NCBI RefSeq assembly: GCF_026626665.1
Contig: NZ_JAPNKE010000002.1
Span: 3,565,168 to 3,629,167 of the forward strand
DNA: 64,000 bases
Direction of reading: 5' to 3'
From: Nannocystis pusilla
GTDB lineage: Bacteria; Myxococcota_A; Polyangia; Nannocystales; Nannocystaceae
In this document: one piece after another, positions 1,008 to 61,273 of the stretch
Layout of the letters: each line of letters starts with the position of its first letter
Position numbering within the stretch: position 1 is the stretch's first letter
Notes under the pieces: model-generated
The model's input: only the letters and a program-made list of their open reading frames with translations
Told to the model about the DNA's origin: nothing
The model's database searches: none
Translations under genes and position numbers: made by a program

Positions 1008-1111
1008 TTGCCATGGTTGAACGGACATGCTCGAAAGGGCATGTCCGAGAGAGCATGCCTCTGAGGGCATGTCTCGAACGCCTGGCCGCGAGCGCGCCTC
1101 GCCCGTGCCCC

Positions 1112-1853
1112 TCAGCGGCCCGACAGGAAGCCGAGGCGCTGGAACAGCGGCTCGGGGGTGTGGCGGACGACGAACAGGATCGGGCGCCAGTACCACGGGA
1201 CGAAGGCGACGACGGCCCGGCGGGCGATCGCGCGGTCGATGTCGCGAGCGGCGCGCTGCGGGGTGGCGAACAGGGCGTTCCTGGGGTGGCCGACGGTCAT
1301 GGGCGTGTCGACCGGGCCGAGCTTGAGCGTGGTGACGTTGACGCCCGCGGGGTAGAGGCGGCTGCGCAGGCCCTGCAGATAGACGTGCAGCGCCCCCTTG
1401 GCGGAGCCGTAGGTGTAGTTGCGCGGGCGGCCGCGCTCGCCGGCGACGGAGGTGATGACCGCGAGCGTGCCGCTGCGCTGGCGCTCGAGCACGCCCGCGA
1501 GCGGGACCAGGACTGCGATCACCGAGAGGAAGTTGACCTGGACGATGCGCGCGGCCTCGGCGACGTCGTGCTCGCTGCGCTGCTGATCGCCGAGGTCGCC
1601 GTGGGCGACGAGGACGACGTCGACCCGGCCACCGAGCGCGGCCACGGCCTCGTTCGCCAGCGCCTCCGCGCGCGAGGTCGGTGAAGTCCCCCGCCCCGGT
1701 GGTGACCTCGGCGCCGGCGCAGCGGGCGGCCACGGCCGCGAGCTTGTCGGCATGGCGGCCGACGAGGTGGAGCCGATCGCCGCGCGCGGCCCAGCGGGCG
1801 CTCACCTCGGCGGCGATGGCGGAGGTGGCCCCGAAGACGATGACGTGGCGCAT
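1112..1853 (-). CDS. Short-chain dehydrogenase/reductase (SDR), apparently frameshifted
   Basis: ORF 1112..1753 carries the SDR catalytic 'YTYGSAKGAL' (YxxxK) motif and an 'LVAHGD' NNAG-like motif. A classic Rossmann N-terminus 'MRHVIVFGATSAIAAEVS…LHLVGRHADKL…GDFTDL' is encoded in a different frame from the ATG at 1853. The frames meet in a (CG)n run at about 1665-1680. Confidence 0.6.
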
Positions 1854-2099
1854 CCGCGGAAGGTAGCGCGGCCCGGCCCGCGATGGCGAGAGGATGTTGG
1901 CGCCGCTGCCGGCGGCACGCGGCCGGCCGCGACCCCTGAGCCCCGTCCGCGCGCTCGGCCGAGGCGTCGCTCCGACGGCGCGCCGAGGCGCTCGGCCGTC
2001 GCCGCGCAGCCGGCTGACGCTCCGACATGACTTCATCGACATGTCTTCATGGACATGTTTTTTACGACATGTTCGAGCGAACCACCGGGAGCGAGCGCC

Positions 2100-4991
2100 T
2101 CACCGCTTCGGCTGGGCCGGCGCGGACCCGCCGGGCGTGACGTTCTCGTCGCGCCACGCGGTGGCCTCGGTCAGGTCGAGCGAGCCGGCGGGCCCCAGGG
2201 CGGTGAAGGTGGCGACGGCCTGCTCGATGAGCGCGCGGGCGCGGACGCGGTCGCGCTCGGACAGCCACAGCGCGCGGGCCAGTCCGTACTCGGCGCGGCC
2301 GCGCAGGAGCGTGTGGACGTCGGTGCCGGCGCGGATCGCCAGGGCGCGCTCGAAGGCCGGGATGGCGGTCGCGTAGTCCCTGGCGTGGAGGCCCCACTCG
2401 CCCAGGCCCAGCAGCGAGCGCGCGACCTCGGCGTGGTCCTCGCCGAGGACGCGGCGGCGGATCGCCAGCGAGCGGTCGATGACCGCGCGCGCCGCGTCGA
2501 GCTGGCCGGCCTCGAGGTACGACGCGGCGAGGTTGTCGAGCTGCGTGCACAGCTCGATGTGGTCGGGGCCGTGGCGGCGCTCGAGCGAGCGCACGACCGC
2601 CTCGAAGGCGGCGACGGCGTCGATCGGGCGGCGGGCGCGGGCCAGCGCGGCGGCGATGTTGCCCTGGAACACGACCACCAGCGGATCGTCCTCGCCGCGG
2701 GTGCGGAGGATGATGTCGAGGCCGCGGCGCCAGGTCGCCAGCGCGGCGTCGAAGTCGGTGAGGACGAAGTAGAGGTTGCCCTCGTAGCGCAGGGCCGCGG
2801 CGACCTCGGGGTGCTCGGGGCCGAAGGCGCGCTCGAGGCGGGCGCGGCTGTCCGGAAGGACAGCCTTGGCGCGGTCGAACTCCTGGCGGGCCCACAGGGC
2901 GGTGCCGAACCACTGGCGGGCGCGCGCGGTGGCCGGGTTGTCGGCGCCGTGGAGGGCGTCGTAGGCGGCGACGCTGCGCTCGATGAGCGCCTCGGACTCG
3001 GCGTAGCGCCCGAGCGACCACAACAACTTGCTGCGGGCGAGGGCGAGCAAGGCGGCGGTGCCGTCGTCGGGCGCGCGCGTCTGGGCGGCGCCGGCGATCT
3101 CGAGCCAGACCTCGGCGTGGTCGAGGCGGCCGAGGGTGTTGAGGGTGTCGACCAGGGCGGCCGCGGCGTCGCGGGCGACCGCGTCCTGACGGCTGGCGGT
3201 GGCCGTGGTGAAGGCGGCGCGCAGGCTGGTCTCGGCCTCGGCGTCGCGCTGGACGAGCGCGAGCAAGCGGCCGCGCGCGAGCTGGGCCTCGGCGACCGCC
3301 GGGGCGTAGGCGGCGGCCTCGGCGGCGGCGACGGCCTGGTCGGCGCCGAGCAGGCCGGCCTCGTAGCGGCCGGTGTGCTCGAGCGCGGCGACGTTGGCGA
3401 GCGCGCGGCGGACGCTGTCGACGGCCAGCGCGGTGGCCGGATCGGCGGGCGGCGGCACCTCGGCGCGGAGCAGCCCGACGTCGGCGCAGCGCTCGATCGG
3501 CGGCAGCGCAGCCACGGCGTCGACGGCCCGCTCGACCACGCCGGCGTCGGCGGCCACCAGCAGGTCGGTGACCGCCCTGACCTCATGGACATGTCGTGAA
3601 AGACAGGCCATGCGCAGGTCGAGCAGGTGCTCCGACTGCTCGCCGCGGGCGTGGGCCTCGCAGGCGTCGCGGTGCATGGCGACGATCGCCTCGGCGCGGG
3701 CGTCGAGGCGGCCGGCCACGTGCGTCCACGCCTCGTCGGCGAAGCCGAGTCCGCTGGCCTCGAAGGCGTCGGCGGCGGCGTCGCGGCGGGCCGAGTCCCA
3801 CACGCCGACCAGGCGCGCCTCGCCGCCGAGGCAGCGGCCCTCGTCCTGGAAGCTCCACGCGGCCGCGGCCAGGCCGATCACCGCGCCGAGGCCGAGGCCG
3901 ACCACGGCATGTCGCGCGCGCACCTGCGGGCCGGCGAGGTCGGCCAGCAGCGCGTCCATGCTGGGGTAGCGGGCGTCGGGGACGCGCGCGAGGCCGCGGG
4001 CGAGCACCCGGTAGAGCCGCTTGCCCGCGCGCGGGCCGACCTGCACGCGTTCGGGCAGGTCGGCGACCAGGACCTGGTCGCGCAGCTCGTCGACGGTGTC
4101 GCCGGAGAACGGACGCGAGCCCCACAGCGCCTCCCACAGCGCGACGCAGAAGCTGAACTGATCGGTGCGGGCGTCGACCTGTCCGCCGAGCCATTGCTCC
4201 GGGGCCATGTACGCGGGGGTGCCGGCGAAGAAGACGGTGCGCTCGACCCCGACGTCGACGAGCTCGTCGCCGGCGGGGCGCTCGGCCTGCTCGGCGAGCG
4301 CGGCCAGGCCGAAGTCGACCACGCGGACGCGACCCTCGAGGTCGACGAGGACGTTGCCGGGCTTGAAGTCGCGGTGCGTGAGGCCGACGCGGTGCGCCGC
4401 GGCGAGGCCCCGCCCGGCCTCCGAGAAGACGGTGAGGATCTCCTGCTGCGAGCGCTCGCGGTCCTCCAACCAGGCCGACAGGGTGACGCCGCGGACGAAC
4501 TCCATGGCGATGAACAGCTCGTCGCCGATCGCGCCGGCCTCGTAGACCTGGACGACGTTGGGGTGCGACAGGCGGGCCAGCGCCTGCGCCTCGCGCAGCA
4601 GGCGGGCCTGCAGGCGCTCGTCCTGGCGGTGGTGCGAGCGCACGACCTTGATGGCGACGCGGCGCTCGAGCACCTCGTCGTAGCCCGACAGGATGACGCC
4701 CATGCCACCCTCGCCGAGCTCGCTCAGGATCGCGTAGCGGCCGATCCGGCGCGACTGGCGGATCAGCGAGTCTTCGAGCGGGGCCGCGGCGCCGCGCAGG
4801 CCGACGCCCGAGGCCGCGTGGAGCGGCGTGCTGTCTCTTCGACCAGGTGACGCGAGGGCCGTCTCCTCGATCGGGCTCGGGCGGGCCCGGGCGGTGACGT
4901 CCAGCGCCGGCGACTTGGTGTCGGTGGTCGCGAGCAGGTCCGGGTCCGAGGGCCCGGAGCGCTTGTCGTCGGGCGAGTGGGCACCCACCAT
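2100..4991 (-). CDS. Ser/Thr protein kinase with C-terminal TPR repeat domain
   Basis: 963 aa ORF with Hanks kinase motifs (GEGGMGVI, VAIK, HRDFKPGNVL, DFGLA, APE) followed by about 500 aa of TPR-like helical repeats. ATG at 4989-4991. Confidence 0.8.
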   Translation of the reverse strand: MVGAHSPDDKRSGPSDPDLLATTDTKSPALDVTARARPSPIEETALASPGRRDSTPLHAASGVGLRGAAAPLEDSLIRQSRRIGRYAILSELGEGGMGVILSGYDEVLERRVAIKVVRSHHRQDERLQARLLREAQALARLSHPNVVQVYEAGAIGDELFIAMEFVRGVTLSAWLEDRERSQQEILTVFSEAGRGLAAAHRVGLTHRDFKPGNVLVDLEGRVRVVDFGLAALAEQAERPAGDELVDVGVERTVFFAGTPAYMAPEQWLGGQVDARTDQFSFCVALWEALWGSRPFSGDTVDELRDQVLVADLPERVQVGPRAGKRLYRVLARGLARVPDARYPSMDALLADLAGPQVRARHAVVGLGLGAVIGLAAAAWSFQDEGRCLGGEARLVGVWDSARRDAAADAFEASGLGFADEAWTHVAGRLDARAEAIVAMHRDACEAHARGEQSEHLLDLRMACLSRHVHEVRAVTDLLVAADAGVVERAVDAVAALPPIERCADVGLLRAEVPPPADPATALAVDSVRRALANVAALEHTGRYEAGLLGADQAVAAAEAAAYAPAVAEAQLARGRLLALVQRDAEAETSLRAAFTTATASRQDAVARDAAAALVDTLNTLGRLDHAEVWLEIAGAAQTRAPDDGTAALLALARSKLLWSLGRYAESEALIERSVAAYDALHGADNPATARARQWFGTALWARQEFDRAKAVLPDSRARLERAFGPEHPEVAAALRYEGNLYFVLTDFDAALATWRRGLDIILRTRGEDDPLVVVFQGNIAAALARARRPIDAVAAFEAVVRSLERRHGPDHIELCTQLDNLAASYLEAGQLDAARAVIDRSLAIRRRVLGEDHAEVARSLLGLGEWGLHARDYATAIPAFERALAIRAGTDVHTLLRGRAEYGLARALWLSERDRVRARALIEQAVATFTALGPAGSLDLTEATAWRDENVTPGGSAPAQPKR

Positions 4992-5202
4992 GGAGGACGG
5001 TACACGACCTGCGCCCCTGCGGCGAGGACGCTATCGCGCACGGGCGCGAGCGCCCCATCCCGCGTGCGCCGGGCCACGCGCGGACCTATGCCCGTCCCTG
5101 GCGGGCCCGCGCGCGAGATGTCTTTTCAGACAGGTCGGTGAGACGACAGGCGACCGCCCGGGCAGGTCGCCAGATCTGCCCGGGCGGTCTGGTGGGTGAG
5201 GA

Positions 5203-7044
5203 TTACTTGCAGGCCTTGGTGATGCCGACCTTGAGCTGGCAGATCGCGTCGGCATAGGCGGCGGTGAACACGTCGCGGCGGACGCCGGTCTGGCTCTTGC
5301 CAAGGTCGTCGAGGTCGGGGCTCAGCTGCCCGAGCTTCTCGCGCAGGGTCGTCTCGGTGGTCCACAGCTCGGCGGCGGCGCGGCGGATCTCGACGTCCTC
5401 GTCGAAGGCGTTGAACACCGTGACGATCGGCTCCTTGTCGCCGCCGAGCGGCACGCCGGCCGACTTGACCGCGAGGTTGAAGCGGTCGGAGTCGAGCGCG
5501 AGCAGGACGTTGTAGTCGTCGCGCTTCGGGTAGAGGGCGCGGACGGCGTCGAGCTGGTTGTCGTCGAAGTCGCCCTCGCCGAGGTTGTTGTCGATCTCCC
5601 AGCGGAGGTCGTCTTCCTTGTTGATCATGCCGACGTTGTGGCAGCCCATGCACGACTTGCCGTTGCGGACCACGCCGTCCGGCGCGTTCTTGTCCTGCAC
5701 GATCTGGATCGGCGCGTCGTCGATGCGGACGCCCTGGCCGTCGACGATCATGTAGCCCTGGAGGCCGTTCGGCAGGCTGTAGATGATCTCGCTGCCGTCC
5801 TCGACGAAGCCGAACGGGTCGACGAACACGTTGGCGTCGCCGGCGTTGCTCTGGAAGTCGTAGCTGATCCAGTAGACGCGGTTGCTGGCGTTCGGGAAGT
5901 CGTGGCGCTCGATCACGCGGTGGTTCTCGGACACGCCCGACTCGTGGAACGCGGCGCGCGCGACCCGGTTCGGGTTGGTCTCGATCTCCTCGGTGACGTT
6001 GGCGTCCACGTCGATGCCGAAGCTCTGCTCGAGCTCGAAGCGGGTCCGCGGGATCCGCAGGATGTCGTGGTAGAGCGGCGGCTGCGCGGACACCTCGACG
6101 AACGCGTCGGCCTGCAGCAGGAAGAACTTGGTGTTCGTGGCCTGCTTCACGTCCTCGGCGCTGTCGCCGATGAACTCGATCGCGTACGGGTCCTTGTTGG
6201 CGATGAGCTCCCAGGTGTCGCGGAACTCCTCGACGAAGGTGTTGGTCTCGATGTCGAGCACGCGGCCCGGCGCGTCCCAGTCGTAGTCGCGGATGTCGAT
6301 GCGGAAGATCAGCTTGTCCGGATCGATCGGGACCGGCGCCACGACCTTGATCTCGTTCGACAGGCTGTTGGCCAGCTTCGACAGGGCGTGGCGGTAGATC
6401 TCGATCTGGTCGTCGCACCAGCCGTAGTTGTAGAGGTGGACCAGGCTGAAGTAGCGGATGAAGGGCCGCGCGTCCGCCGAGATCTCCTGCGTGTTGAGCA
6501 GGTCGTTGCGGATCAGGTCGATCACCTGCGTGCGGGTCATCCACGGGTTCTCGCCGCACCCGGTCACGCCGGCACACTCGCCGATCCACTGCTCGACCAC
6601 GCGGATGTCGTCCTCGCTCGGCCGCGGCTCCTGGCCCTCGGGCGGCATCGGCAGCATGGTCGCGGCCATGCGGCGGTAGATCGCCGAGTTGTTCGGCTCG
6701 CCGGGGACGACCTTGCCGTTCGAGATCAGCGCGTCGAGGTTGGTGATGTAGTTGATGCTGCCGAGGGCCGCGCTGTCGGCCCCGTGACACTGCTTGCAGT
6801 TCTTGTCGAGGATGTTGAGGGTCTGCGCCGACAGCTCGCCGCAGTTGGCCTCGCCCTGCTCGCCGTCACCGCCGGTGCTGCTGCCGCCGTCGGTGCCGCC
6901 GCCGGCGGTGGTGCCCCCGGTGCCCTCGGTCTCGTCGCCGCTGTCGTTGCCCGGCAGGACGACGGTCTTGCAAGCGCCGCCCACCATCAGCGCGAGCGCT
7001 GCGGCGGAGATCAGCGGGATCGATGAGTAGAATCGTTGAGTCAT
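5203..7044 (-). CDS. Secreted lipoprotein with two CxxCH haem-binding motifs (di-haem cytochrome c-like, PSCyt-like family)
   Basis: 613 aa ORF. Signal peptide plus lipobox (LMVGGAC). CKQCH and CMGCH motifs. AGGAG RBS upstream of the ATG at 7044. Somewhat lower GC and N/D/K/I-rich composition relative to neighbours. Confidence 0.65.
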   Translation of the reverse strand: MTQRFYSSIPLISAAALALMVGGACKTVVLPGNDSGDETEGTGGTTAGGGTDGGSSTGGDGEQGEANCGELSAQTLNILDKNCKQCHGADSAALGSINYITNLDALISNGKVVPGEPNNSAIYRRMAATMLPMPPEGQEPRPSEDDIRVVEQWIGECAGVTGCGENPWMTRTQVIDLIRNDLLNTQEISADARPFIRYFSLVHLYNYGWCDDQIEIYRHALSKLANSLSNEIKVVAPVPIDPDKLIFRIDIRDYDWDAPGRVLDIETNTFVEEFRDTWELIANKDPYAIEFIGDSAEDVKQATNTKFFLLQADAFVEVSAQPPLYHDILRIPRTRFELEQSFGIDVDANVTEEIETNPNRVARAAFHESGVSENHRVIERHDFPNASNRVYWISYDFQSNAGDANVFVDPFGFVEDGSEIIYSLPNGLQGYMIVDGQGVRIDDAPIQIVQDKNAPDGVVRNGKSCMGCHNVGMINKEDDLRWEIDNNLGEGDFDDNQLDAVRALYPKRDDYNVLLALDSDRFNLAVKSAGVPLGGDKEPIVTVFNAFDEDVEIRRAAAELWTTETTLREKLGQLSPDLDDLGKSQTGVRRDVFTAAYADAICQLKVGITKACK

Positions 7045-8577: not shown

Positions 8578-11500
8578 GCTCGCAGGCGCCGGCCCGCGCC
8601 TCCGCGACGTCGTCGGCCTCTCCGAGGTGGCGCCGGCGCTCCGCGGGCAGCAGGCACGCGCGCGTGGCGGCGGCGAGGCGCGCGCGCAGGCCCTCGCCGG
8701 GCCGCGGCCACACGACGACGCGGCCGTCGGCGCCGGCCGAGGCGAGGCGATCGCCGCCGGCGTCGTACGCGAGGGCGTTGACGCCGCCGCCGTGGCCCGC
8801 GAGCAGCTCGGGCCCGGCGTCGCCCTGCAGCGACCAGAAGAGGAGCGCGCCGTCGGCCGCGCCGGCGACGATCCAGCCGTCGCGCGGGTCCCAGGCCACG
8901 CTCGTCAGCGCCGCCGAGGCCCGCCCCAGCTCGGTGCGCACGCCGGTGGCGGCCGCCACGCGGACAAGCGCCCTGCCTCGCCGGCGACCGCGAGCGCGTC
9001 GCCGGCGGGGCTCCACGCCAGCGCGCGCAGCGGGTGGCCGAGCTCGATGAACACCGTCTGCTCGACGCGCACCAGCACGAAGCCGGAGGCGGTGACCGCC
9101 GCCAGCCGCTCGTCGACCGGCGACCAGGCCATGGCGGTGATGGCCCCGCGCCCCTGCGGCGCGCGGGACGGATCGAGCATGTCCTTGAAGTCATGTCCCG
9201 AAGGCCAGAGGAAGAACGCGCCCTCGCTGCCGCCCGCGGCCAGGCGATCGGCGCGAGGATCCCAGGCCAGGGCGGACACCGGGCGGCGGTCGAGGCTGAC
9301 GCGCCGCGTCGCCCCCTCGCCGCGGGGGATCCAGGTGACCGCGCCGCCGTCGTCGGCGATCGCCAGCTCCTGGCCGTCGCGCCGCCAGGCCAGCGCCAGC
9401 GCGGTGCCGGCGTGGTCGCGCCGGCGCACCGGGCCGTCGTCGGTCGGCAGCAGCCACACGCTGCGCGCGCCGGCGGCGGCCAGGGCGGTGCCGTCGGGGC
9501 TCCACGCGAGCGCGTGCACGGCCGCGCCGAGGTCATGCTCGCGCAAGGCGGCCGGCGCGAGCCGCCACACCCGCGCGCTGCCGTCGTCGCTGCCGGTGAT
9601 CAAGCGGACGCCCACGGGCGCGAACGCCAGCGCCCGCACCGGCCCGGTGTGACCGCGCAGCACGTAGGGGCGCGCGGTCCCGCCGATCCGCCACACCCGC
9701 GCGCTGCCGTCGTCGCTGCCGCTGGCGAACCATCCTGTCCCGAGAGCCAGGCCGGTGACGCCGCCGTCGCCGACCACCGCGGCGACCCGCCGCGGGGTGC
9801 CGTCGACCCGCCAGACCTCGACGCCGCCGTCGTCGCGGCCGATCGCCAGCTGGCGCCCGTTGCGGTCCCACGCCAACGCGCCCACCGCCGCGCCGCGAGC
9901 GACGACCAGGGTCGCGCGGCCCTCCGCGACCACCCAGACCTCGCCGCGCGGGCCGGCCGCGGCCACGCGCGCGCCGTCGGGGCTCCACGCGACCGCCGCG
10001 AGCGGACCCGCGACGCCGCGCAGCGGCGTGACCCGATCGACCGCGACCAGCGACACCCCGCCGCGCGCGTCGGTGCGGAGCTGCTCGCCGCCGGGTCCGC
10101 GCCGCGGATCGGACACGGAGCCGCCTGCCCCCGGCGTGGGCGGCCCGCCGGCCAGCGCGAAGCGGCGGACGTTGCCGGCGGCGTCGACCGTCTCGACCGC
10201 GCCGCGCAGATCTTCGGCGGCCGCGGCAGGCCGTGGGCTGTCCTGCGGGACAGGTGACGTGTCCTCAGGGACAGGCGCACCGGCGACCGGCACCGCCCCG
10301 CTCGCCAGCACGACCTCGCGCGGGCGCGCGTCCGACCTGTCCGCGAGGACAGGCGGATCGACAACCGCCGCGGAGCCGGCCCCGCTCGCCAGCACGACCT
10401 CGCGCAGGTGCGCGTCCGACCTGTCCGCGAGGACAGGCGCACCGGCGCCCGCCGGGAGCCCGCTCGTCAGCACGACCTCGCGCCGGCGCACGTCCGACCT
10501 GTCCGCGCGGCCAGACGCACCAGCGCCCGCCCCGCTCGCCAGCACGACCTCGCGCCGGTGCGCATCCGACCTGTCCTCACGGACAGCTCCCGTCCGCGCG
10601 TTCGACCTGTCCTTGCGGACAGCTCCCGTCCGCGCCTTTGACCTGTCCTCGCGGACAGCCCCCACCGCGCCCGGCACCGCGCTCCTGTCCCCCGGGACAG
10701 CCTCGACCCAGCGCACCGCCGTCACCGCGCCGTCGTGACCGCGCAGGATCGCCTGGCTGATCGGCTCGGCCAGCACGCGCTGAGCCAGCGCGCCCGGCTC
10801 GTCGAGCTCGCGCAGCAGCAGCGCCGCGGCGGTCGGGTCGCGCGGCAGCAGCGAGAACGCGGCGTCGCGGACCCGCAGCGCGTGGGCCTGGCGCTCCGCG
10901 GCCGCGCGCTCGACCGCCAGCTCGCCGGCCTGCGCGTCGGCGGGGGCGCTCTCGGGCGCGGTCGCCTGCGGGGCCGCGGCCGCGCCCGCGCCCGCCTCGG
11001 GCTGCGCCAGCGACACCCCGAGCGCGACCAGGCCCGCCGCGGTGGCCGCCGCGCCGCCGGCGATCAGCCACGTCCGCACGGGCACCGGCTCGGGGTTCTC
11101 GGCGAAGCGCCGCCGCGGCTGCAGGGCCGCGAGCAGCTCCTCCATCGTCGCCCAGCGCTCGGCTGGCTTTTCGGACAGGCCGCGGACGATCGCGCGGCGG
11201 ACGCGCAACGGCACGCGACTTTCGCGCGGAATGGGCGCGATCTCGACCTGTCCGAAGCGCGGAAGCGAGCCGAACGGCCGCAGACCGAACAAACCTTCGA
11301 ACAGCGCCACGCAAAAGCTGAATTGGTCGGAGCGCGGCTCCGCGTTGCCGGTGCGCTGCTGCTCGGGCGCCATGTAGGCGGGCGTGCCGAGGATGCTGCC
11401 GGTGCGCGTCAGCGGCATCAGCTCGTCGTCGAGGGCCTCGCCGAAATCGAGGGCGCAGGTGAGTCCGAAGTCGAGGACGCGCGCGCGGTCGCGGCTGTCG

Positions 11501-12054
11501 ACGAGCACGTTCTCGGGCTTGAAGTCGCGGTGCAGCAGGCCGGCGTGGTGGGCCGCGGCCAGCGCCCGCCCGGCCTGCAGGTACACCGCGAGCACCTCCT
11601 GCCACGGCCGCGGGCGCTCGCGCAGCCACGCCTCGAGGGTCACACCCTCGATCAGCTCCATGGCGATGTAGATTTGGTCGCCCCACGCGCCGACCTCGTA
11701 GATCCGCGCCACGTGCTCGTGCTCGAGGCGTGCCATCGCCCGGGCCTCGCGCAGCAGGCGGGCGCGACCCTGGTCGTCGCCCTGGAGGTGCGGGTGCAGC
11801 AGCTTGATGGCGACGCGGCGATTGAGCTGGGCGTCGACGGCCGCATACACGACGCCCATGGCCCCCTCCCCGAGCCGGCGCTCGACGTGGAAGCGCCCGA
11901 TCATGGTGGGCGCGGCCGGCTCGCCGAACAGCCGGCCCATCACGCGCGCGTGGAGACGATGGACGTCGACGTCACCCCACGTGCCCGCACCTGCGCCGCG
12001 GGCGGCCCTCAAGTCGGGAGGCGTGTCGGGCGGCGTGTGGGGCGGCGTCGACAT
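8552..12054 (-). CDS. Ser/Thr protein kinase - repetitive linker - WD40 beta-propeller fusion (apparent frameshift near 8950)
   Basis: ORF 8905..12237 has kinase motifs (GEGAMGVVY, VAIK, HRDFKPENVL, DFGLT, APE), then about 28 aa tandem protein repeats (DRSDAHRREVVLASGAGA…), then WD40 repeats (WSPDG…). The WD40 region continues in ORF 8552..9016 in another frame; the junction is in a GCC/CC run. Likely start is MSTPPHTPPD at about 12054. Confidence 0.7.
10250..10720. repeat. In-gene tandem DNA repeats (about 78 bp and about 39 bp units) encoding the kinase linker
   Basis: Repeated units such as ccgctcgccagcacgacctcgcgc…gtccgacctgtccgcgaggacaggc, each containing the inverted pair GACCTGTCC/GGACAGG. 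Seen directly in the sequence. Confidence 0.7.
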
Positions 12055-21747: not shown

Positions 21748-21811
21748 GAGACAGGTCCGCCGCGCTACGCACCGAGGACCCGCGCGCTCCGGCCCGCGGG
21801 TCCTCGCGCGT

Positions 21812-47320: not shown

Positions 47321-47404
47321 CTGGCACGGAGCGCGAGCGATCGCGCGCCCCGCCTGCGTGCGGGCCCGCTTCCGGCCGTGGCCGCGCTGTCGTATCACTC
47401 CGCC

Positions 47405-48737: not shown

Positions 48738-48744
48738 CGGTGAA

Positions 48745-48925
48745 GCATGTCCCCCACGACATGCCCTCATGGGCATGTCTTCGGAGACATGTCACATTCG
48801 ACATGCTCGATAAGACCTATCTCTTCGACCATGTCGGGCAGGAGCTCGGCGCCGGGCGTCGCTCGCGGCGGCCGACGATGCTCCGTCCCTCGCCGCAGGG
48901 ATACTACATGTCTCGAGAGACAGCC
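48745..48925. repeat. Intergenic GACATGTC-core repeat array
   Basis: gcatgtcccccacgacatgccctcatgggcatgtcttcggagacatgtcacattcgacatgctcgataagacctatctcttcgaccatgtcggg…catgtctcgagagacagcc. Confidence 0.8.
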
Positions 48926-48977
48926 GGACGTGCCCTGCCTCTCGACGCGGTCTCGGCCGCCTGCCCCCTACCACCGC

Positions 48978-50072: not shown

Positions 50073-50374
50073 GATCTCCGCCCGCGCCGGGCCGACCCGC
50101 GCGGACGAACCCGCCCGTCATCGCCCGAGAAGGCCGCGACGGAACGGCGTTGCTCGTCGACCCCGCGACAGTTCAAAAACCAGGACCGCGCGGCGCGAGC
50201 GACACCTCGAGAGGCAACCTCCGGACGCAGAGCGCTGGACTTCTCGACTCGCGCGCCCGCCGGGTGCCCGACGCTCCCGCGCGGCACGACGGGCCCACGT
50301 CGCCCCGCTCACCGCATGGGCCGCTCGAACTCGAGCGGCCCCGGGTAGCCGTCGCTCAGGTCGCACCGAGAGAC

Positions 50375-50455
50375 CGCATGTCCCTGGCGCCATGTCCCTG
50401 GCGCCATGCCTCCGAGGGCATGTCTCTCGAGACATGCCCTTTCAGACATTCCCCT
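50375..50455. repeat. Intergenic GACATGTC-core repeat array
   Basis: gcatgtccctggcgccatgtccctggcgccatgcctccgagggcatgtctctcgagacatgccctttcagacattcc. Confidence 0.8.
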
Positions 50456-50457
50456 CG

Positions 50458-51741
50458 CTACAGCCGCGCCTCGACCTCGACCACCTCGGGCGGCGTCGCC
50501 GTCTGCAGGAACTCGAGCGCCGCCGCGTTGCCGCGCAGGTGGTGGTCGAAGAACGCCGCCGCGTAGGCCGCGACGATCGCCCGCGCCTGCAGCGGCTCGA
50601 GGTAGACGAACTCGCTGCCGTCGGTCTGACGCGCGCCCGGGCCGCAGCCGGCGTCGAACTGCTCGGCCAGGCCGCAGATGTCGGTCGGGCCCCAGTGGCC
50701 GGTGTCCTTCATCCGCACCAGGTAGGCCGGCGTGGCCGCGGCGTCGAAGTTGGACTCGATGAGCTGGTTGCCGATCTTGCCGATGCTGTTGTCCTCGGCG
50801 GCGAGCACGAACAGCTGCGGCTCGTCGATCTCCGCCAGCTTGGTGCCGGAGAAGATCGGGTTCTGGACCGGCGCCGCGATCGGCAGCGCCGCCACGATCC
50901 GGTCGTCCTCCTGGGCCAGGCGCCCCGCGGTCGCGGCCCCGTAGCTGTGGCCCATCGCGCCGATCCGGGCCGGATCGATCGCGCCGCGGATGGCCTCGGG
51001 GACCGCCGAGTTGCCGGCGTCGAGCACCGCGTCGAGCACCGCCATCTGGTCGGCCACTCGGACCTGCAGGAACGCCTCGTCGAGCGGCGCCTGCGGCTCA
51101 TCGAACAGGGTGTTGCCGGCGTGGTCGGGCGCGACCACCACGAACCCGTGGCTGGCCAGGTGCTCGGCGATCGTGAACATCGAGAAGCGCACGCACCCGT
51201 GGCAGTGCGAGAACATCACCAGCGGGTACGGCCCCGTGCCCGCCGACGCGGCGTCGCGCGCCGAGCGGGTCTGCTCGCGCACGCCGACCTGCCCGTGCTC
51301 CGACAGCTTGGCCAGCAGCGCCACCATCATGTCGCGCTGCGGGCCTTCCGGCACGAACTCGGCGATCGGATGCCCGGCGTCGGCGGCCGCCTGCGCCGAG
51401 ATGTCGGCCGGATACCACGCCTCCACCAACAGCGTGCGCTCGCCGGCGACCACCGAGAACGTCGCGTTGCCGACCGGCGCCGCCCCGGGCGCGTCGTAGT
51501 CCTCCTCGGAGCCCTGGCCCGTGGTGGTCGCGTCCGGATCCAGCGTGCCACCCTCCGTCGTCCCCGCGCCGGTCGTCGGCGTATCCGTCGCCGCCGACGA
51601 CCCGGGGCCGGGCGGCTCGCCGGTCGTCGACGAGATCGAAGAACCCGAGCCGTCGGTGCCGCCGGCGCTGTCGGGGCCGGAGGTGGCCGCCGCGGTGCTG
51701 CAGGCGGCGAGGAGGAGAGTAAGCGAAGCGAAGCGGCGCAT
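50458..51741 (-). CDS. Secreted lipoprotein alpha/beta hydrolase (PAF-acetylhydrolase/dienelactone-hydrolase-like)
   Basis: 427 aa. Lipobox LLAACS. Thr/Gly-rich linker. GHSYG nucleophile elbow. Confidence 0.65.
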   Translation of the reverse strand: MRRFASLTLLLAACSTAAATSGPDSAGGTDGSGSSISSTTGEPPGPGSSAATDTPTTGAGTTEGGTLDPDATTTGQGSEEDYDAPGAAPVGNATFSVVAGERTLLVEAWYPADISAQAAADAGHPIAEFVPEGPQRDMMVALLAKLSEHGQVGVREQTRSARDAASAGTGPYPLVMFSHCHGCVRFSMFTIAEHLASHGFVVVAPDHAGNTLFDEPQAPLDEAFLQVRVADQMAVLDAVLDAGNSAVPEAIRGAIDPARIGAMGHSYGAATAGRLAQEDDRIVAALPIAAPVQNPIFSGTKLAEIDEPQLFVLAAEDNSIGKIGNQLIESNFDAAATPAYLVRMKDTGHWGPTDICGLAEQFDAGCGPGARQTDGSEFVYLEPLQARAIVAAYAAAFFDHHLRGNAAALEFLQTATPPEVVEVEARL

Positions 51742-53830: not shown

Positions 53831-54087
53831 GCATGAGGCGCACGAGGCATCCACGCAAACACCCCTGTGTCGCCAGTCACGAGCGATCGCCCATCATATG
53901 TCTCTCGAGACATGTCCTAAAGAACTCCATGACGCATCACCACCGCCGCGAAGCAGCCGTGGCTCGTAGCCGGCGATCCTCGCCACGGATCGCAGTCGTC
54001 GACCGTCGACCGCGAGGCGCACGCGCGCCCGCCTCGACGCGGTAGCGATCGCAACCATCACCCCGCGTCACGCCAGGCGGCCCGCGC

Positions 54088-54941
54088 TCACCAGTAGATC
54101 TGCACCGCACCGTCGCCGCGGCGCGCTCCCGCTTCGAACTCCACCTCGTCCGCGTCGACGCCCACGTGCGACGAACCGCCGCCACCGCCCGCGCCGAACG
54201 CCCCGCCGCCGCCGTACCAGCCGCCGCCGCCGCCTGCCACGTGATAGCGCGCCGCTCCGCCGCCGAGCCCGAACACCCCGGACTGCCCGGGCGACGAGCC
54301 GCCTGCGCCTCCGGCGTGTTGCCTGCCGCCGCCACCCGCGCTCCAGAAGTCCTCGCCCACGATCCCGTCGTCGCCGACGAGCCCCCGCCGGCGCCGCCCG
54401 CCCCGTGGTCTGGAAAGCCGCACGAGCCGCCGCCTCCGCCGCCTACCACCAGCGCGCGATCGATCAGGCTGGCGCCGCCGATCCGGATGTCCGATCCGCC
54501 GCCGCCGCCCCCGGCCCACACGCCGCCGCGTCCGCCTCCGTTCCATCCCGGCGCCCCGTCGATCCCGCCGCGTCCGCCGACCAGCACCAGCAGCACCTCG
54601 CCGGGTCGCACCGGCAGCTCCGCGCGCAGCCAGCCGCCGCGACCGCCGTCCATCTGCACGTCGGGCAGCCCGTGGATCTCGTCGATCCCGCAGCGACTCG
54701 GCCCGCCCTGCGCGCCCCACAGCTCGACCGACAGCGTCGTCACGCACTCCGGCACCACGAACACCTGCGGCCCGCCCGTGAACGCGAACCCGCGCCCGCC
54801 CGGGCCCGCGCACCCCGGCACCGCGTCCGGCACCATTCCGTCGAGCCCCACGACCTCGGGCGCGTGACAGCCGAGCAGCGCCACGAGCGCCGCGGCCCTG
54901 CGTCCGGGTCGAATGTGTGAGCCGCTCCCCTGCATCGCCAC
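54088..54941 (-). CDS. Secreted glycine-rich-domain protein, paralog 2 (frameshifted)
   Basis: ORFs 53937..54941 (…FAFTGGPQVFVVPECVTTLSVELWGAQGG…) and 54088..55002 (…YHVAGGGGGWYGGGGAFGAGGGGGSS…VQIYW). Same architecture as paralog 1. Confidence 0.45.
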
Positions 54942-55009
54942 CCCTTCTCCAGGGATGCGCGGCGCCGTCCGCGATGCAAACGCCGCCCGTGCTGCGCGTC
55001 ACGCCTCAC

Positions 55010-55409
55010 AATATATGTCCTAATGGACATGCCCAAACAGACATATGTAAGGGTCGTCGAGGATCCACGTGGCATGTCCTTCGAGACAGGCGACCCTGCC
55101 GAGCAGAGCGCCGCGGAGTCACGGTCGCGGCGAAGGACTCCCTTCCCACGAGCCATCCACCGCCTCGCCCTGCGCCGCCCGCACCGTACTGCTGCATGTC
55201 CCGCAAGACGTGCTCATCGAGACGGCTCGTCACCGTCACCGCGCGCATGCATGTCCTTCAAGACATGCTCATCGAGACATCCCGCCGCCCGCCAATGCAT
55301 GTCCTTCAAGACATGCCCTTCGAGGCATCCTCATTCCCCCATGCATCCGTCTCGCCGCGCCCAGCCCGCATGTCCATCAGGACATGCCCCACGAGACATC
55401 CCCGCCCGC

Positions 55410-55410: not shown

Positions 55411-58122
<2,712 letters not shown>

Positions 58123-58951: not shown

Positions 58952-59263
58952 GTGGATCGCCTGGCGATGCTCCGACAGTTCGTGGCCCAAAAGCCAGGTG
59001 AGGCGTTCCCGCGCTACGGCCTGGCCATGGAGCTGAAGCGCCGCGGGCAGCTCGCCGAGGCGATCGTCGAGTTCCGCGAGCTCATCGCCAAGATCCCCGA
59101 ATACGTGCCGGCCTACTTGATGGCCGGCAACACCCTGGTCGAGGCCGGCGACCGCGACGGCGCCCTGCAGGTCCTCGATCAGGGCGTTCAGGCCGCGCGC
59201 GCGGCCGGCGACGCGCACGCGCTCGGCGAGCTCGAATCCGCCCGCGCCGCGCTGGAAGGGTGA
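58952..59263 (+). CDS. Small TPR-like protein
   Basis: 103 aa. Two TPR-like helix pairs (…AIVEFRELIAKIPEYVPAYLMAGNTLVEAGDRDGALQVLDQGV…). Translationally coupled to the next gene (stop/start overlap). Confidence 0.5.
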   Translation: MDRLAMLRQFVAQKPGEAFPRYGLAMELKRRGQLAEAIVEFRELIAKIPEYVPAYLMAGNTLVEAGDRDGALQVLDQGVQAARAAGDAHALGELESARAALEG

Positions 59264-60180
59264 GCGCCACGTCCAGGCTCGCCGACGCCGCCGCGATCGA
59301 CCTGGTGTTCGCCAGTCCGCGACGGTTGCCCAAGCCCGCGAACCTGCGCGGCCGCGTGGTCGTGCTCGACGTCGCCTTCGCGGCCGAGGGCATCGGCAGC
59401 GGCTTCGAGAAGATCACGGGCAAGTTCCTCGCCGGCCTGGGCGCGCGCCTGGCCCGGTGGGTCGACCACCACGATCACGAGCGCCACGCCCAGTTCCGCG
59501 GCGACCGGCGCTTCGTGCTCCACACCAAGGCCGAGCACGGCGCCTGCCCCGAGATCGTCACGCCGCAGATGGTCGAAGAGACAGGTCCGGTCGACACCAT
59601 CGTCGCCCACTTCGACCTCGACGGCCTCTACTCGGCCGCCAAGTGGCTGCTCCGCGGCGTCGAGCCCTACCCGGGCGCCGACGCCGACGCCCGCGCCGTC
59701 GACACCCGGATCGGCGAGGTCGGCCCGATCGGCGCCCTCGTCGACAAGGCGCTGCGGGCCCACTACGAGGACACCGTCCTCCTCAACAAGATCGTCCGCT
59801 GGCTGGTCGCCGGTCGCCCGCGCGGCGCCGAGCAGGAGGCGATCGCCGCCGCCGCCGCCGACTTCGACGCCATGGCCGCCGAGGCCGCCGCGCTGGCCCG
59901 CGCCTACGTCGTCGAGGATGGCGTCGCCCTCGTGCGCGTGCCCGGCAATCCGCGCTCGTTCGACAAGACCGAGCTGCTGCTGCTCGGCCAGGAGCGCGCC
60001 CCCGTGGCGGTCGTCATCGACGGCCAGACCCTGAACATCGCCGCCAGCTTCGCCAGCGGCCTCGATTTCGTCGCCCTGCTCGGCCTCGGCGGCGGCATGC
60101 CGACGCGCGTCAGCGTGCCCGCCTCGCGCCTCGACGACACGCTCGCCAAGATCCGCGCCGCCCTGCGCGCGCGCGGCTGA
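59260..60180 (+). CDS. Hypothetical protein
   Basis: 306 aa ORF with protein-like composition. Overlaps the upstream stop. No domain recognised. Confidence 0.5.
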   Translation: MSATSRLADAAAIDLVFASPRRLPKPANLRGRVVVLDVAFAAEGIGSGFEKITGKFLAGLGARLARWVDHHDHERHAQFRGDRRFVLHTKAEHGACPEIVTPQMVEETGPVDTIVAHFDLDGLYSAAKWLLRGVEPYPGADADARAVDTRIGEVGPIGALVDKALRAHYEDTVLLNKIVRWLVAGRPRGAEQEAIAAAAADFDAMAAEAAALARAYVVEDGVALVRVPGNPRSFDKTELLLLGQERAPVAVVIDGQTLNIAASFASGLDFVALLGLGGGMPTRVSVPASRLDDTLAKIRAALRARG

Positions 60181-60199: not shown

Positions 60200-60670
60200 G
60201 CATTCGACATGTCCCGAAAGACACTTGTGCCGACAATCTGGTCGGCCGTCCGCCGCGCGTGGTCGACCTGTCCCGAGAGACGTTTTTGTCGACTTGCCGG
60301 TCCGCTGCCCGCCGCGCGGCCGAACCTGCCCCGAGAGATACTTTTTTCGACGGCCGGTCGGCCGTCCCCGCGCGCGGCCGCACCTGTCCCGAGAGACACT
60401 TTTTTCGACGGGCCCGCCGCTGTCCGCCGCGCGTCGAACTGTCTCGAGAGACATTTTTCGACGGGCGGTCGGCTGTCCGCCGCACGCGGGCGACCTGTCC
60501 CGAGAGACACTCTCGCCTCCCGGCCGGCCTCCCGAGCCCTGCACGTGACCGACCTGTCCCGAGAGACACGCTCCGCTCCCGCGGTCACGTGTCCCGGCGC
60601 GCCAGCGCGACATGTCCCGAAAGACATCTCTGTCTCCAGGCCGATCCTGTCGTCGCCAGCCCGCAGGGGG
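60200..60670. repeat. Eight-unit 57-59 bp degenerate tandem repeat array (not CRISPR)
   Basis: Unit (C)GACCTGTCCCGAGAGACAC-TTTTTTCGACGG-GCCGGTCGGCCGTCCGCCGCGCG-GCCG starts at about 60206, 60265, 60323, 60382, 60436, 60492, 60551 and 60608. The whole unit repeats, including the would-be spacer. Confidence 0.85.
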
Positions 60671-60803
60671 CGCTGACGCGCCCTCGGCCCGCGATCTCGC
60701 CCAGATCGAGAGCTCACTTGGTGTTGCAGGTCGGGGACGCAAATAGGACCCTGGCCTCCGCAGTCCGAGTGCCCACCACGGGCCGACCCCCAGGAGAATC
60801 ACA

Positions 60804-61163
60804 ATGTCGCAACGTCCTCGTCTGTCCCTGCTCGCCGCCCTGACGGCGCTGATGCTCCCCGCCGCCGCCTTCGCCGACTCCAACGGCACGGTCGGCAACG
60901 TCGAAGCAGTCACCCTCTACGAGAGCAGCAGCGACAACCACGCCATGTTCAACGGCTCGGTCTCGATCAAGGAGAAGACCGGGCAGAAGCGCGACTACAA
61001 GTGGGGCGGCTCGCTGTGCCCCGGCCGCGAGCTCAGCGCCAACGCGGTCAACCTGCTGTTCGAGGCCCTGCGCGCCAAGAAGCAGGTCGAGGTCACGCCG
61101 ACCTACAAGGCCGGCAACGGCGGCGAGCGCTGCCTCACCGGCTTCAAGCTCGAGAGCCGCTGA
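60804..61163 (+). CDS. Small secreted protein (signal peptide), hypothetical
   Basis: 119 aa. Signal peptide MSQRPRLSLLAALTALMLPAAAFA. Two Cys. Noticeably lower GC than the surroundings. RBS-like caggagaatcacaATG. Confidence 0.55.
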   Translation: MSQRPRLSLLAALTALMLPAAAFADSNGTVGNVEAVTLYESSSDNHAMFNGSVSIKEKTGQKRDYKWGGSLCPGRELSANAVNLLFEALRAKKQVEVTPTYKAGNGGERCLTGFKLESR

Positions 61164-61273
61164 GGCCCCGGCCGGCCGCCGCCCGTCGCCGCTCCCCCGG
61201 CGACGCTCGCCGGCCGGCAACTCTTATGTCTCTTCGGCCATGTCCTTCACGACATGGCCGTTCTTCTACGCGC

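Follow-up and report, generated by a model that had tools for sequence, protein, structure and literature searches.

Repeat arrays in the window

The 64,000 nucleotides of Nannocystis pusilla DNA analysed here (the window) carry genes for, among others, a kinase-TPR protein, a kinase-WD40 protein, an HTTM protein, a radical-SAM protein, a histidine kinase, a VWA protein and ThrS, together with 115 units of a short palindromic repeat, which form chains of two to seven cores at 25 loci (Table 1 gives the main ones). The initial annotation had described such a family in a series of intervals along the window, and the family is present in every one of them. Its motifs greatly exceed chance expectation: GACATGTCC occurs 28 times (0.44 expected), a count that none of 100 shuffles reached, CATG-N10-CATG has 38 matches against 0.45 expected, and a position-weight scan at a threshold of at least 12 bits returned 60 matches compared with 2.0 in shuffled sequence. 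Enrichment of the motif over shuffles is thus 60- to 80-fold. The variant GACCTGTCC is likewise in excess (14 matches against 0.69 expected).

The basic element is an inverted repeat of 16–18 nt, (C)ATGTC(C)-N4-6-(G)GACAT(G). Its position-weight matrix is symmetric about CATG, the unit has no oriented head, and the core is AT-rich although the genome has 73% GC. Since each arm overlaps with its complement (GACATGTC), one core can serve two successive elements, which are thereby linked head to tail into chains with a 14-bp period. The phasing is exact, with distances between CATG cores of 14 bp (38 pairs), 28 bp (21), 42 bp (14) and 56 bp (6) and not a single pair at 13 or 15 bp. The periodicity of 20–60 bp given initially is the spacing between unit clusters and not the period within arrays. 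Arrays of two to more than 10 units had also been described; more than 10 are found only at multi-cluster loci such as 16740–17162 and 55009–55405, whereas the runs themselves hold one to seven phased cores. A repeat architecture in which inverted repeats overlap and keep to a 14-bp phase is unusual.

Units at the ends of runs retain their inner half and have lost the outer one (consensus match 0.77–0.80 vs 0.65–0.66; p = 7e-9 and 9e-12), which identifies the inverted repeat, and not an isolated palindrome, as the functional unit. The 12-bp palindrome AGGACATGTCCT was rejected as the functional unit for this reason, and it is further disfavoured because isolated intergenic cores almost always have a partner arm. 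A slippage microsatellite was rejected as well: adjacent units are as diverged as any two family members (identity the same as in random pairs, z = −0.5), so that recent 14-bp slippage is not the main source of the arrays, and the between-strain indels that were inspected were not multiples of 14. Young duplicate units are few (e.g. 50377–50408), and some loci contain local higher-order duplications.

Table 1. Repeat loci and related features of the window (window coordinates; strand of genes in brackets).
Position	Feature	Gene context	Further observations
1007–1076	5-unit run	From stop codon of gene 3–1007(+); convergent gap with 1112–1645(−)	Predicted RNA fold −43 kcal/mol, z −3.5
2021–2076	4-unit run	24 nt past stop of kinase-TPR gene 2100–4991(−)	
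3585–3612	In-gene copy	Kinase-TPR gene	
5112–5139	Single hairpin element, CTGTCT-GAAA-AGACAT on − strand	64 nt past stop of gene 5203–6987(−)	Downstream of conserved GC-rich hairpin 5152–5189; kept in five Nannocystis species, with one U-A to C-G double change at the loop-closing pair
9173–9200	In-gene copy	WD40 part of kinase-WD40 gene	2-unit run at matching syntenic position in 5/5 relatives
10293–10670	84/78/36-bp tandem repeats (+)	Inside kinase-WD40 ORF	Carry non-chaining variant hairpin CCTGTCC-N4-GGACAGG; stretch hypervariable between species
16740–17162	Multi-cluster locus, 13 units in six runs, ~110-bp higher-order repeats	Begins 25 nt past stop of gene 16044–16715(+)	Array in all six genomes, sequences unalignable between them
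22934–23003	5-unit run	Overlaps stop codon of gene 22312–22947(+)	Within a ~300-bp segment absent from three relatives
24998–25358	Multi-cluster locus, 11 units	75 nt past stop of HTTM gene 25433–26971(−)	Alignable with close strain; loops there mostly substituted
27020–27047	In-gene copy	HTTM gene	2-unit run at matching position in L001
near 28582–28599	Isolated element		
28748–28789	3-unit run, palindrome with 13-bp stem	76 nt past stop of radical-SAM gene 28865–30157(−)	
34678–34705	2-unit run	29 nt past stop of gene 33684–34649(+)	
37333–37360	Single core with partial partner arm	57 nt past stop of histidine-kinase gene 34958–37276(+)	
38928–38997	Two 2-unit runs	Convergent gap 38157–38807(+) / 39002–40351(−); 5 nt from stop of the latter	
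46813–47320	Sub-family GAC[AC]TGTC[CT]CTTC[GA]G.CAGC, repeated about every 90 bp	Sole locus in a divergent region, between thrS leader and FAD-enzyme gene	Well conserved in L206
48741–48915	7-unit run and one further unit	4 nt past stop of gene 48405–48737(+); gap convergent with 48978–50072(−)	Predicted fold −50.4 kcal/mol, z −5.1
50372–50455	6-unit run	3 nt past stop of hydrolase gene 50458–51741(−)	
53892–53919	2-unit run	18 nt past stop of ORF 53937–54941(−)	
55009–55405	Multi-cluster locus, 11 units, often triplets, ~48-bp higher-order repeats	67 nt past stop of VWA gene 55472–56995(−)	
60203–60633	Canonical units at 60203 and 60606–60633, flanking 58/111-bp tandem repeats (60204–60511)	Begins 23 nt past stop of gene 59260–60180(+)	Tandem repeats carry variant GACCTGTCC-N5-GACAC
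61234–61261	2-unit run, 10-bp stem	Convergent gap 60804–61163(+) / 61274–61876(−)	Predicted fold z −6.25

Placement relative to genes

All placement counts refer to our own GC3-based gene calling rather than to a curated annotation. On this map 88 of the 115 units fall into the non-coding ~24% of the window, and the initial description of the arrays as always intergenic and filling nearly every gap is too broad: they occur only in regions that follow a stop codon, and hardly any lie in the promoter-only regions between divergent genes. Convergent regions have 15.8 units per kb, co-directional regions 6.7 and divergent regions 0.8 (divergent depletion p = 1e-10), and a metagenome replicate of 42 high-GC contigs, 38 of which lack any 300-nt similarity to the window, gave 7.2, 2.4 and 0.7 units per kb, respectively (p = 2e-7). 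Array starts in the window lie 0–120 nt past stop codons, many arrays abut or overlap one, and the first unit on the metagenome contigs is found at a median of 17 nt past the stop. A unit follows the stop within 150 nt in 22 of 46 window genes and precedes the start within 150 nt in only six. A single sequence-defined element stands after roughly half of the genes of the window, which amounts to most operon-ending genes. A recently acquired low-GC island contains no units. A promoter element was rejected on placement, given that units are almost missing from divergent regions, and a lone TATAAT adjoining a unit (46814–46842) is not conserved in L206.

The intergenic unit density exceeds the genic one by a factor of about 10. 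Within genes the motif is mildly enriched, with about three loci against ~0.3 expected from motif count and gene map, and in-frame repeats occur occasionally inside ORFs. The in-gene copies noted initially near 3585, 9173 and 27020 exist; runs at matching syntenic positions, as seen for the latter two, are as expected for conserved coding sequence, and the copy at 9173–9200 is probably ordinary coding sequence. Gene callers read through some of the arrays as ORFs.

Distribution among genomes and change between strains

Each of the six other Nannocystis sequences that were sampled contains the family, and one near relative shows it in weaker form, whereas neither two relatives at a greater distance nor one Sorangium locus showed it. 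As a negative control we used an RsgA-based genome scan covering four Nannocystis species and unrelated phyla; the 75 unrelated genomes (1.28 Mb) showed no sign of the family, with 18 pairs at a distance of 14 bp compared with 19 at 13 bp and 32 at 15 bp. An exact-protein look-up with a second protein of the window returned no match that would extend the close-strain contig. Judged from these sequences, the family extends across the genus and becomes weaker with increasing distance from it. Extrapolation from the window would put it at ~5,000 loci per 13-Mb genome. These data also settle the idea that the repeats reflect chance composition or a local duplication confined to the window, which we regard as practically excluded: the 60- to 80-fold enrichment, the absence of a 14-bp pair excess in unrelated genomes and the dispersal of the family over six other Nannocystis sequences and the 38 contigs without 300-nt similarity to the window, in line with the dispersed family proposed initially, refute it and leave nothing in its favour.

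Comparison with three close strains showed mismatches of 5.6, 7.8 and 9.1% in the stem cores, of 21.7, 25 and 44% in the internal loops and of 15–22% in nearby intergenic DNA. The 8-nt core is therefore three to five times better conserved between strains than the surrounding DNA, while the loops are nearly randomised between strains that are about 92% identical in DNA. On sequence comparison this combination of conserved core and fast loops is what one would expect if stems are conserved and loops are free to vary. The neighbourhoods of the arrays are the fastest-evolving DNA of the window, arrays at orthologous sites are wholly different between species, and some occur in one close strain but not in another.

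Folding potential and transcript-end signals

The palindromic units had been proposed to form hairpins, and the predicted folds agree with this: 10 of 12 arrays fold better than shuffled controls at z −2.2 to −6.3, while the other two have z −1.8 and −0.8; for hairpins made of two units the predicted energies go to −9 to −18 kcal/mol. Some conserved single elements are predicted to form weak hairpins only (−2.4 to −5 kcal/mol). No U-tract follows the runs on the sense strand: T makes up a fraction of 0.15 of the next 12 nt, compared with 0.19 at the mirror position, and TTTT is present at one of 20 runs. The runs thus lack the U-tract of canonical intrinsic terminators, while their position shortly past stop codons agrees with them. 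Recognisable terminators are few in those myxobacteria that have genomes of about 13 Mb with 70% or more GC, and the ends of their transcription units are poorly understood. Between 44 and 64 kb of the window, simple stem-plus-T-run terminators occur at chance level (four vs 3.8 expected), so that most genes there have no other recognisable 3′ signal; the thrS leader shows that a canonical GC-stem-plus-UUUU terminator exists in the same genome.

No covariation was found over and above what the shared consensus gives. Complementarity between adjacent units does not exceed that between random family members (permutation mean z = −0.28), an upper-tail test gave 13 cases against 14.1 expected, and per-position tables showed an association for pair 1 only (p = 0.004). 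The C-G variant CCTG...CAGG derives mostly from one in-gene tandem repeat and is not convincing as compensation. Mismatches of the G-U type do not differ significantly between sense and antisense strand (96 vs 84 pooled, p = 0.41; 37 vs 29 in one set), and the purine content of the loops is symmetric. A search of Rfam returned no match at gathering score in the whole window and none at E ≤ 1 over 46400–50600.

Relation to known repeats and signals

The exact repeat had not been recognised as a described family, and with no Rfam match and no description found in the searchable literature this assessment is supported. There we found no relevant description of REP-like or intergenic repeats in myxobacteria, Sorangium or Nannocystis, and nothing relevant on RAYT in Myxococcota. 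The repeats thus constitute a very abundant and apparently undescribed family of short palindromes.

The initial comparison with REP/BIME elements is appropriate as regards placement, dispersal and the hairpin-capable palindrome, and fails for the oriented head, the ~35-nt unit and the alternating linked clusters. Like REP, BIME and REPIN, the Nannocystis repeats are short hairpin-capable palindromes, single or clustered, at very many loci; they share with REP/BIME an extragenic position, either 3′ of genes or within operons but not between divergent promoters, as well as lineage specificity, conserved stems and variable loops. Whereas REPs have about 35 nt (range 20–40) and an oriented GTAG-type head, the Nannocystis unit is shorter and fully symmetric, and whereas BIMEs alternate REPs with defined linkers, in Nannocystis clusters the units follow one another head to tail, with shared cores and an exact 14-bp phase. 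The AT-rich core in a GC-rich genome is a further difference from REP/BIME. REPINs are mobilised by RAYT transposases (Y1, IS200/IS605-like), and no RAYT gene is encoded in the window. MITEs, the other class suggested initially, were rejected, because similarity between loci is limited to 21–48 nt, i.e. to the units themselves, apart from an 81-nt match of 75% identity between two neighbouring clusters at 16740–17162; no shared body able to carry terminal repeats or target duplications was found among the loci of the window.

[quoted passage not shown] These arrays and the cyanobacterial STRR resemble the Nannocystis family in their head-to-tail units, their many loci and their depletion between divergent ORFs and in coding DNA, but heptamer units are strand-asymmetric, G-rich and quadruplex-forming, whereas the Nannocystis unit is a palindrome. 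With intrinsic terminators, including bidirectional ones, the repeats have in common stem-loops just past stop codons that are symmetric enough for either direction; they differ in that terminators have idiosyncratic GC-rich stems, while here an AT-rich fixed stem recurs genome-wide and lacks a U-tract. The inverted-repeat geometry is identical to that of PadR and CRP operators, in the case of PadR with the same tetranucleotides, yet those operators are few per genome and located in promoters, whereas the Nannocystis sites are extremely numerous, chained and located at gene 3′ ends. Neisseria DUS, finally, are similarly abundant, lineage-specific short motifs with inverted pairs at terminator positions, and unlike them the Nannocystis motif keeps a fixed phase, is chained and has no preferred orientation.

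Possible functions

In E. coli, REP/BIME elements make the upstream mRNA more stable and are bound by gyrase and IHF. We tentatively favour, while stopping short of calling it probable, the explanation that the Nannocystis repeats are REP/BIME-like extragenic palindromes, specific to this lineage, that define or protect transcript 3′ ends. Assuming that they are transcribed, the arrays would form the tail of the upstream mRNA, and of both mRNAs between convergent genes, and would adopt a structure of one or more nested stem-loops, which may define or protect the 3′ end as a barrier to 3′-exonucleases and may aid pausing or termination after factor-dependent termination, as REP does in E. coli; the symmetry of the unit suggests that the element would work in either orientation. 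That one 8-nt core recurs at thousands of loci and is conserved amid changing surroundings points to a lineage-specific core-recognising factor, either a copying enzyme or a binding protein, that would maintain the family. Enrichment, phasing, placement, folding, core conservation, the scarcity of other 3′ signals and taxonomic distribution count in favour of RNA stem-loops; against them count the missing U-tract, the lack of covariation and of a G-U excess on the sense strand, the weak hairpins of some conserved single elements, and the fixed loop length and fixed stem sequence, which generic hairpin function does not need.

Sites for a DNA-binding protein fit several of these statistics better than a pure hairpin model and are a live rival. 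The arrays could be double-stranded sites for a lineage-specific dimeric HTH or winged-HTH protein at the 3′ boundaries of transcription units, acting as a roadblock terminator, as an insulator between convergent genes or as a recruiter of topoisomerase (cf. gyrase at BIMEs), with the hairpin potential as a by-product of tandem palindromic half-sites; we consider this possible, though rather doubtful. Half-sites of 5 bp separated by N6 are CRP-type geometry. The repeats offer ATGTC and GACAT with N6 between them, and their centres are about 11 bp, or one helical turn, apart. Read as ATGT-N8-ACAT, CATG-N10-CATG matches the canonical operator of the PadR family, which recognises ATGT/ACAT inverted repeats with a spacer of 8–10 nt (PMC3506622). 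Exact spacing without any pairs at 13 or 15 bp, the strictly symmetric unit, the lack of covariation and of a transcription-strand bias, the conserved half-sites with free spacers and the conservation of elements with weak hairpins are all predicted by a protein site and not by a generic hairpin; the AT-rich core in a 73% GC genome also speaks for such a site. On the other hand, no cognate protein was identified in this analysis, sequence-specific regulators normally sit at promoters, where the units are missing, neighbouring dimers on chained sites that share a core would clash, arrays that abut or overlap a stop codon are easier to understand as a transcript feature, and the protein would need thousands of sites per genome by extrapolation. 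We also know of no such protein. In its strongest form, in which a dedicated protein of PadR- or CRP-like geometry marks the 3′ boundary of nearly every Nannocystis transcription unit, the proposal is unlikely. If true, genes would end in a signal defined by a protein, for which there is no description in bacteria; the protein would serve as roadblock terminator, insulator or supercoil-relief station, and the hypervariable 6-nt loops would reflect hairpin or cruciform extrusion in vivo.

The changeability of the arrays bears on the further possibility that the repeats are selfish or purely mutational in origin, without a host function, and survive just past stop codons where they do little harm; copies would be made by a RAYT-like enzyme, or made and homogenised by template switching at quasi-palindromes. 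Orthologous arrays that differ between species, their presence or absence between close strains, the fast evolution of their surroundings, the local higher-order duplications, the lack of units in the recent low-GC island, the restriction to a single lineage and the occasional in-frame copies in ORFs would all be consistent with such an origin, but the core is three to five times better conserved than its surroundings and one element (5112–5139) is kept across five species. Nor does the window encode a transposase, no transposase domain being present among its scanned proteins; target duplications, terminal repeats and a shared body were not found, and adjacent units that are no more alike than random pairs and the indel lengths reported above weigh against this origin, too. 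An origin of this kind therefore seems improbable. A DNA-uptake-type signal like the Neisseria DUS, in which biased uptake or recombination would make the motif over-represented and whose paired copies would double as terminators, is very improbable: a short, lineage-specific and very dense motif with inverted pairs after genes and mild in-gene enrichment would suit it, whereas uptake sequences need neither a fixed 14-bp phase nor a partner arm, the tenfold lower density in genes argues against it, and we know of no competence in Nannocystis.

The family offers a concrete and testable candidate for the 3′-end signal, with a built-in contrast between RNA hairpin and protein site. The conserved 8-nt core within fast-evolving 3′ regions may in addition report on hairpin formation or on a homogenising mechanism in vivo. 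Lastly, the element is usable as a marker of the Nannocystis lineage in metagenomes.

A phase-locked family of overlapping inverted repeats

The window has a GC content of 73%, and because all frames are open at such a GC content, genes were called from third-position GC bias; this home-made, rough map underlies all genic and intergenic figures. The encoded proteins (Ser/Thr kinases with TPR or WD40, HTTM, PSD/DUF1552, an ECF sigma factor and a vault-like protein) are typical of myxobacteria. The repeat family is real: in the window, GACATGTCC is present in 28 copies (0.44 expected), CATG-N10-CATG in 38 (0.45 expected) and the variant GACCTGTCC in 14 (0.69 expected), and units occur in every interval of the initial annotation. 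The period of 20-60 bp proposed there has to be replaced by a core spacing of exactly 14 bp: CATG cores lie 14 (38 pairs), 28 (21), 42 (14) and 56 bp (6) apart, with no pair at 13 or 15 bp in the window. The 14-mer consensus is nAGGACATGTCCTn, with a symmetric weight matrix. A softened matrix yields 115 units in the window. They form 56 phased runs of 1-7 units, and 88 units fall into the ~24% called non-coding by the rough GC3 map. Runs of at least two units collapse to 25 loci, which, extrapolated from 64 kb to a 13-Mb genome, would give ~5,000 loci and ~23,000 units.

Three observations favour (C)ATGTC(C)-N4-6-(G)GACAT(G), an inverted repeat, as the unit over an isolated 12-bp palindrome. 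Intergenic "single" cores nearly always have part of a partner arm (GACA) behind them, correctly spaced; terminal cores of runs keep their inward half (match to consensus 0.77-0.80) while the outward half is degenerate (0.65-0.66; p=7e-9 in the Nannocystis set, p=9e-12 in the metagenome set); and the variant CCTGTCC-N4-GGACAGG retains inter-arm pairing, has lost the core palindrome and does not chain. Chains form because GACAT overlaps its own complement, yielding GACATGTC, so that a core shared by two neighbouring repeats acts as 3' arm for the first and as 5' arm for the second. All 14 GACCTGTCC copies lie on the + strand (seven independent loci versus none), which beyond 8 kb is itself rich in C (negative GC skew); their orientation may be biased relative to replication.

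Arrays are placed at gene 3' ends

The repeats had been described as always lying between genes. They are indeed mostly non-coding, but their placement depends on gene orientation. Across six Nannocystis sequences, convergent gaps carry 15.8 units/kb (6 of 10 gaps occupied), co-directional gaps 6.7 (31 of 63) and divergent gaps 0.8 (1 of 15), a depletion with p=1e-10. Of the 46 genes in the window, 22 have a unit no more than 150 nt past the stop codon, often at 0-30 nt and in one case overlapping the stop, whereas only six have one in the 150 nt ahead of the start; genes without a downstream unit are mostly operon-internal. The window's sole exception is a sub-family in a divergent gap, which a relative shares in well-conserved form. 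A motif scan of metagenomes retrieved 42 high-GC contigs (286 kb), 38 of them without any 300-nt similarity to the window, and these gave the same ranking, with 7.2 convergent, 2.4 co-directional and 0.7 divergent units/kb (p=2e-7). In their co-directional gaps the median distance is 17 nt from the upstream stop to the first unit and 55 nt from the last unit to the next start. The placement of the arrays is thus that of a 3'-end signal.

Not every 3' end uses the family, since the convergent gap between the DUF1552 and GNAT genes holds a different hairpin. The GC-rich hairpin behind gene 5203-6987 is kept in five Nannocystis species, the sole change turning a G-C into a G-U pair on the sense strand, and is probably a real terminator or 3' stabiliser of that gene. 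A single family hairpin lies 18 nt beyond it and is also conserved in five species, with an invariant GAAA loop and one U-A to C-G double change that alone is not significant.

Features of the window and of compared contigs
Feature	Position	Strand	Description
GACCTGTCC variant sites	4176, 10334-10640, 11245, 13278, 26293, 49931, 60265-60551	+	
Hairpin behind gene 5203-6987	5152-5189	-	14-bp GC-rich stem, begins 14 nt past the stop
Repeats in kinase-WD40 ORF 8905-11943 (-)	10293-10670		84-, 78- and 36-bp tandem repeats
Convergent gap, DUF1552/GNAT	21748-21811		no family units; GC-rich hairpin GAGGACCCGCG...CGCGGGTCCTC
Tandem duplication	23108-23170		perfect, 32 bp; right border of ~300-bp segment with array 22934-23003
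Low-GC island	42838-45275		GC 0.685; between O-methyltransferase gene and thrS
thrS leader	46553-46680	-	upstream of thrS (45276-46496, -); 24-codon ORF MLRRATTATTTTTLPGGVGRVRVR, then stop
Sub-family in divergent gap	46813-47320		
Repeats downstream of gene 59260-60180	60204-60511		58- and 111-bp tandem repeats, 5.4 and 2.4 copies
Microsatellite, contig L108	7600-7687		(GCGACAT)n, 7 bp, >12 copies; at contig end
In-frame repeats, contig L135	10027-10330		42 bp (three 14-bp units = 14 codons), in a 3.5-kb ORF

The family extends beyond the window

The MsrB of the window has an exact match on a 266-kb contig (L001, assembly GCA_049337375.1) with a DNA identity of 95-98% to the window. In a genome scan with RsgA, which places the window in Nannocystis, the best hit was Nannocystis sp. 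RBIL2 at 97% amino-acid identity, and N. punicea, N. bainbridge and N. radixulma came next; the remaining 75 loci, from unrelated phyla, served as negative controls (1.28 Mb). All five related Nannocystis loci contain 10-14 pairs at 14 bp per 21 kb and hardly any at 13 or 15 bp (0 to 2 in each), against 18 pairs at 14 bp, 19 at 13 and 32 at 15 in the controls. Occurrence in these five loci and in the 38 contigs dissimilar to the window shows that the family is not confined to the latter.

Sampling was widened along a gradient of ThrRS identity, covering ~20 kb per taxon. At 79% identity (contig L081) the family is present at lower density, for example as GGGACATGTCCCC twice in succession, directly behind a stop codon between convergent genes. 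The contigs at 75% and 73% (~20 kb each) show scattered, mostly coding-like hits, the former with one intergenic inverted repeat of the CCTG...CAGG variant type, and the Sorangium cellulosum locus (~20 kb) scattered coding-looking hits only. The microsatellite of contig L108 adjoins a normal unit pair; its unit length is half the family period and it contains CATG.

Cores are protected in fast-evolving regions

The alignment with a close strain breaks exactly at the arrays. All six genomes have arrays in the gap that follows gene 16044-16715, with sequences that are not alignable among genomes. The ~300-bp segment bordered by the 32-bp duplication is missing from three relatives; at the duplication, relatives are single copy with no insert.

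Where arrays could be aligned (about 50 orthologous units; three relatives at 3.4%, 6.5% and 7.9% third-codon-position divergence), the 8-nt core GACATGTC mismatches at 5.6%, 7.8% and 9.1% and the internal 6-nt loops at 21.7%, 25% and 44%; intergenic DNA differs by 15-22% within 40 nt of arrays and by 3.4-7.9% far from them. The core is protected within very fast-evolving 3' regions. Grouped as 4-nt spacer versus 10-nt core, mismatches in the two-strain comparison differ with p=4e-5. Spacer changes counted per unit look binomial rather than all-or-none, favouring site-wise change over wholesale unit replacement. Adjacent units show no extra likeness or complementarity compared with random family members, and no inspected indel is a multiple of 14; recent 14-bp slippage is therefore not the source of the phasing, and a slippage microsatellite was rejected.

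Interpretation of the arrays

REP/BIME elements, the extragenic palindromes of Enterobacteria and Pseudomonas, have a placement matching that of the family. Heptamer arrays of Xanthomonas and Nostoc are also placed in this way (PMC4692102). Most economically, arrays would be transcribed from either flank as the ends of mRNAs, and the stem-loops they form there may block 3'-exonucleases or aid termination. Conserved stems with free loops fit this reading, and predicted stem-loops are strong and often nested (z -2.2 to -6.3 in 10 of 12 arrays, -1.8 and -0.8 in the two weakest), two-unit hairpins reaching -9 to -18 kcal/mol. A REP-like RNA hairpin at 3' ends is our leading explanation, held tentatively and at somewhat less than an even chance. 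Canonical terminators were rejected, as the sense strand lacks a T-run behind the arrays; matches in a generic terminator scan were no commoner than chance. G-U-type mismatches do not differ significantly between sense and antisense strands (96 versus 84, p=0.41), and loops show no purine bias relative to transcription direction. Several features are not expected of a generic hairpin: the stem has one fixed sequence, the 14-bp spacing is rigid, the symmetry is perfect, neither covariation nor strand bias is seen, and weak hairpins are conserved (some conserved single elements attain no better than -2.4 to -5 kcal/mol). All of these point to sequence recognition. On one reading, a putative protein would copy the elements or keep them uniform, as in the REP-RAYT case. 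Alternatively, the arrays may serve as duplex-DNA sites for a protein: the centres of the half-sites are spaced by one helical turn, and the unit reads ATGT-N8-ACAT, the PadR-family operator (PMC3506622). We regard such putative sites as the less probable runner-up. An element that is selfish or of mutational origin, with no role for the host, is doubtful and ranks third, and uptake-signal or chance explanations are very improbable.

As to classification, the resemblance to REP/BIME noted initially holds for 3'-end placement, and the family would work alike, but it has neither their oriented imperfect palindromes nor their alternating clusters. Since these two structural traits fail and a RAYT partner would be putative, we do not file it as REP. 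The MITE-like reading was abandoned because the loci have no sequence in common beyond the units themselves; no transposase is encoded in the window. An Rfam family was likewise rejected as the identity of the repeats, and our literature search found no published description, in agreement with the initial impression. We place the family among the dispersed palindromic repeats that lie outside genes, at their 3' ends, as a variant of this known kind that is unusual in its overlapping, phase-locked architecture and notable for its conserved core versus variable loops.

Neighbouring elements and repeats within reading frames

The thrS leader ORF has seven Thr in eight consecutive codons and is followed by a GC-rich stem and UUUU terminator of textbook form; the whole is almost 100% conserved in a relative at 7.9% third-codon-position divergence. 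It looks like a classic threonine-codon attenuator of a short-form threonyl-tRNA synthetase and, as judged from its sequence, shows that canonical intrinsic terminators should work in this organism. The adjacent low-GC island has ORFs similar to endonuclease VII and to an AAA_21/AbiEii-type ATPase, contains zero repeat units and is missing from the syntenic contig L206 (492-bp gap there); it is probably a recent insertion and possibly a defence island.

Each tandem repeat downstream of gene 59260-60180 carries the variant unit GACCTGTCCCGAGAGACAC, then TTTT and GC-rich sequence. Those in the kinase-WD40 ORF carry long CCTGTCC-N4-GGACAGG hairpins in an apparently continuous frame, and cross-species alignments break exactly there. 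Hairpin repeats may thus have invaded a protein linker, or expanded within it, while staying in frame, a picture that recalls Rickettsia palindromic elements. The in-frame repeats of contig L135 encode GAGMSGGTGASG-like repeats, and third-position GC over them falls from about 0.98 to 0.62-0.82.
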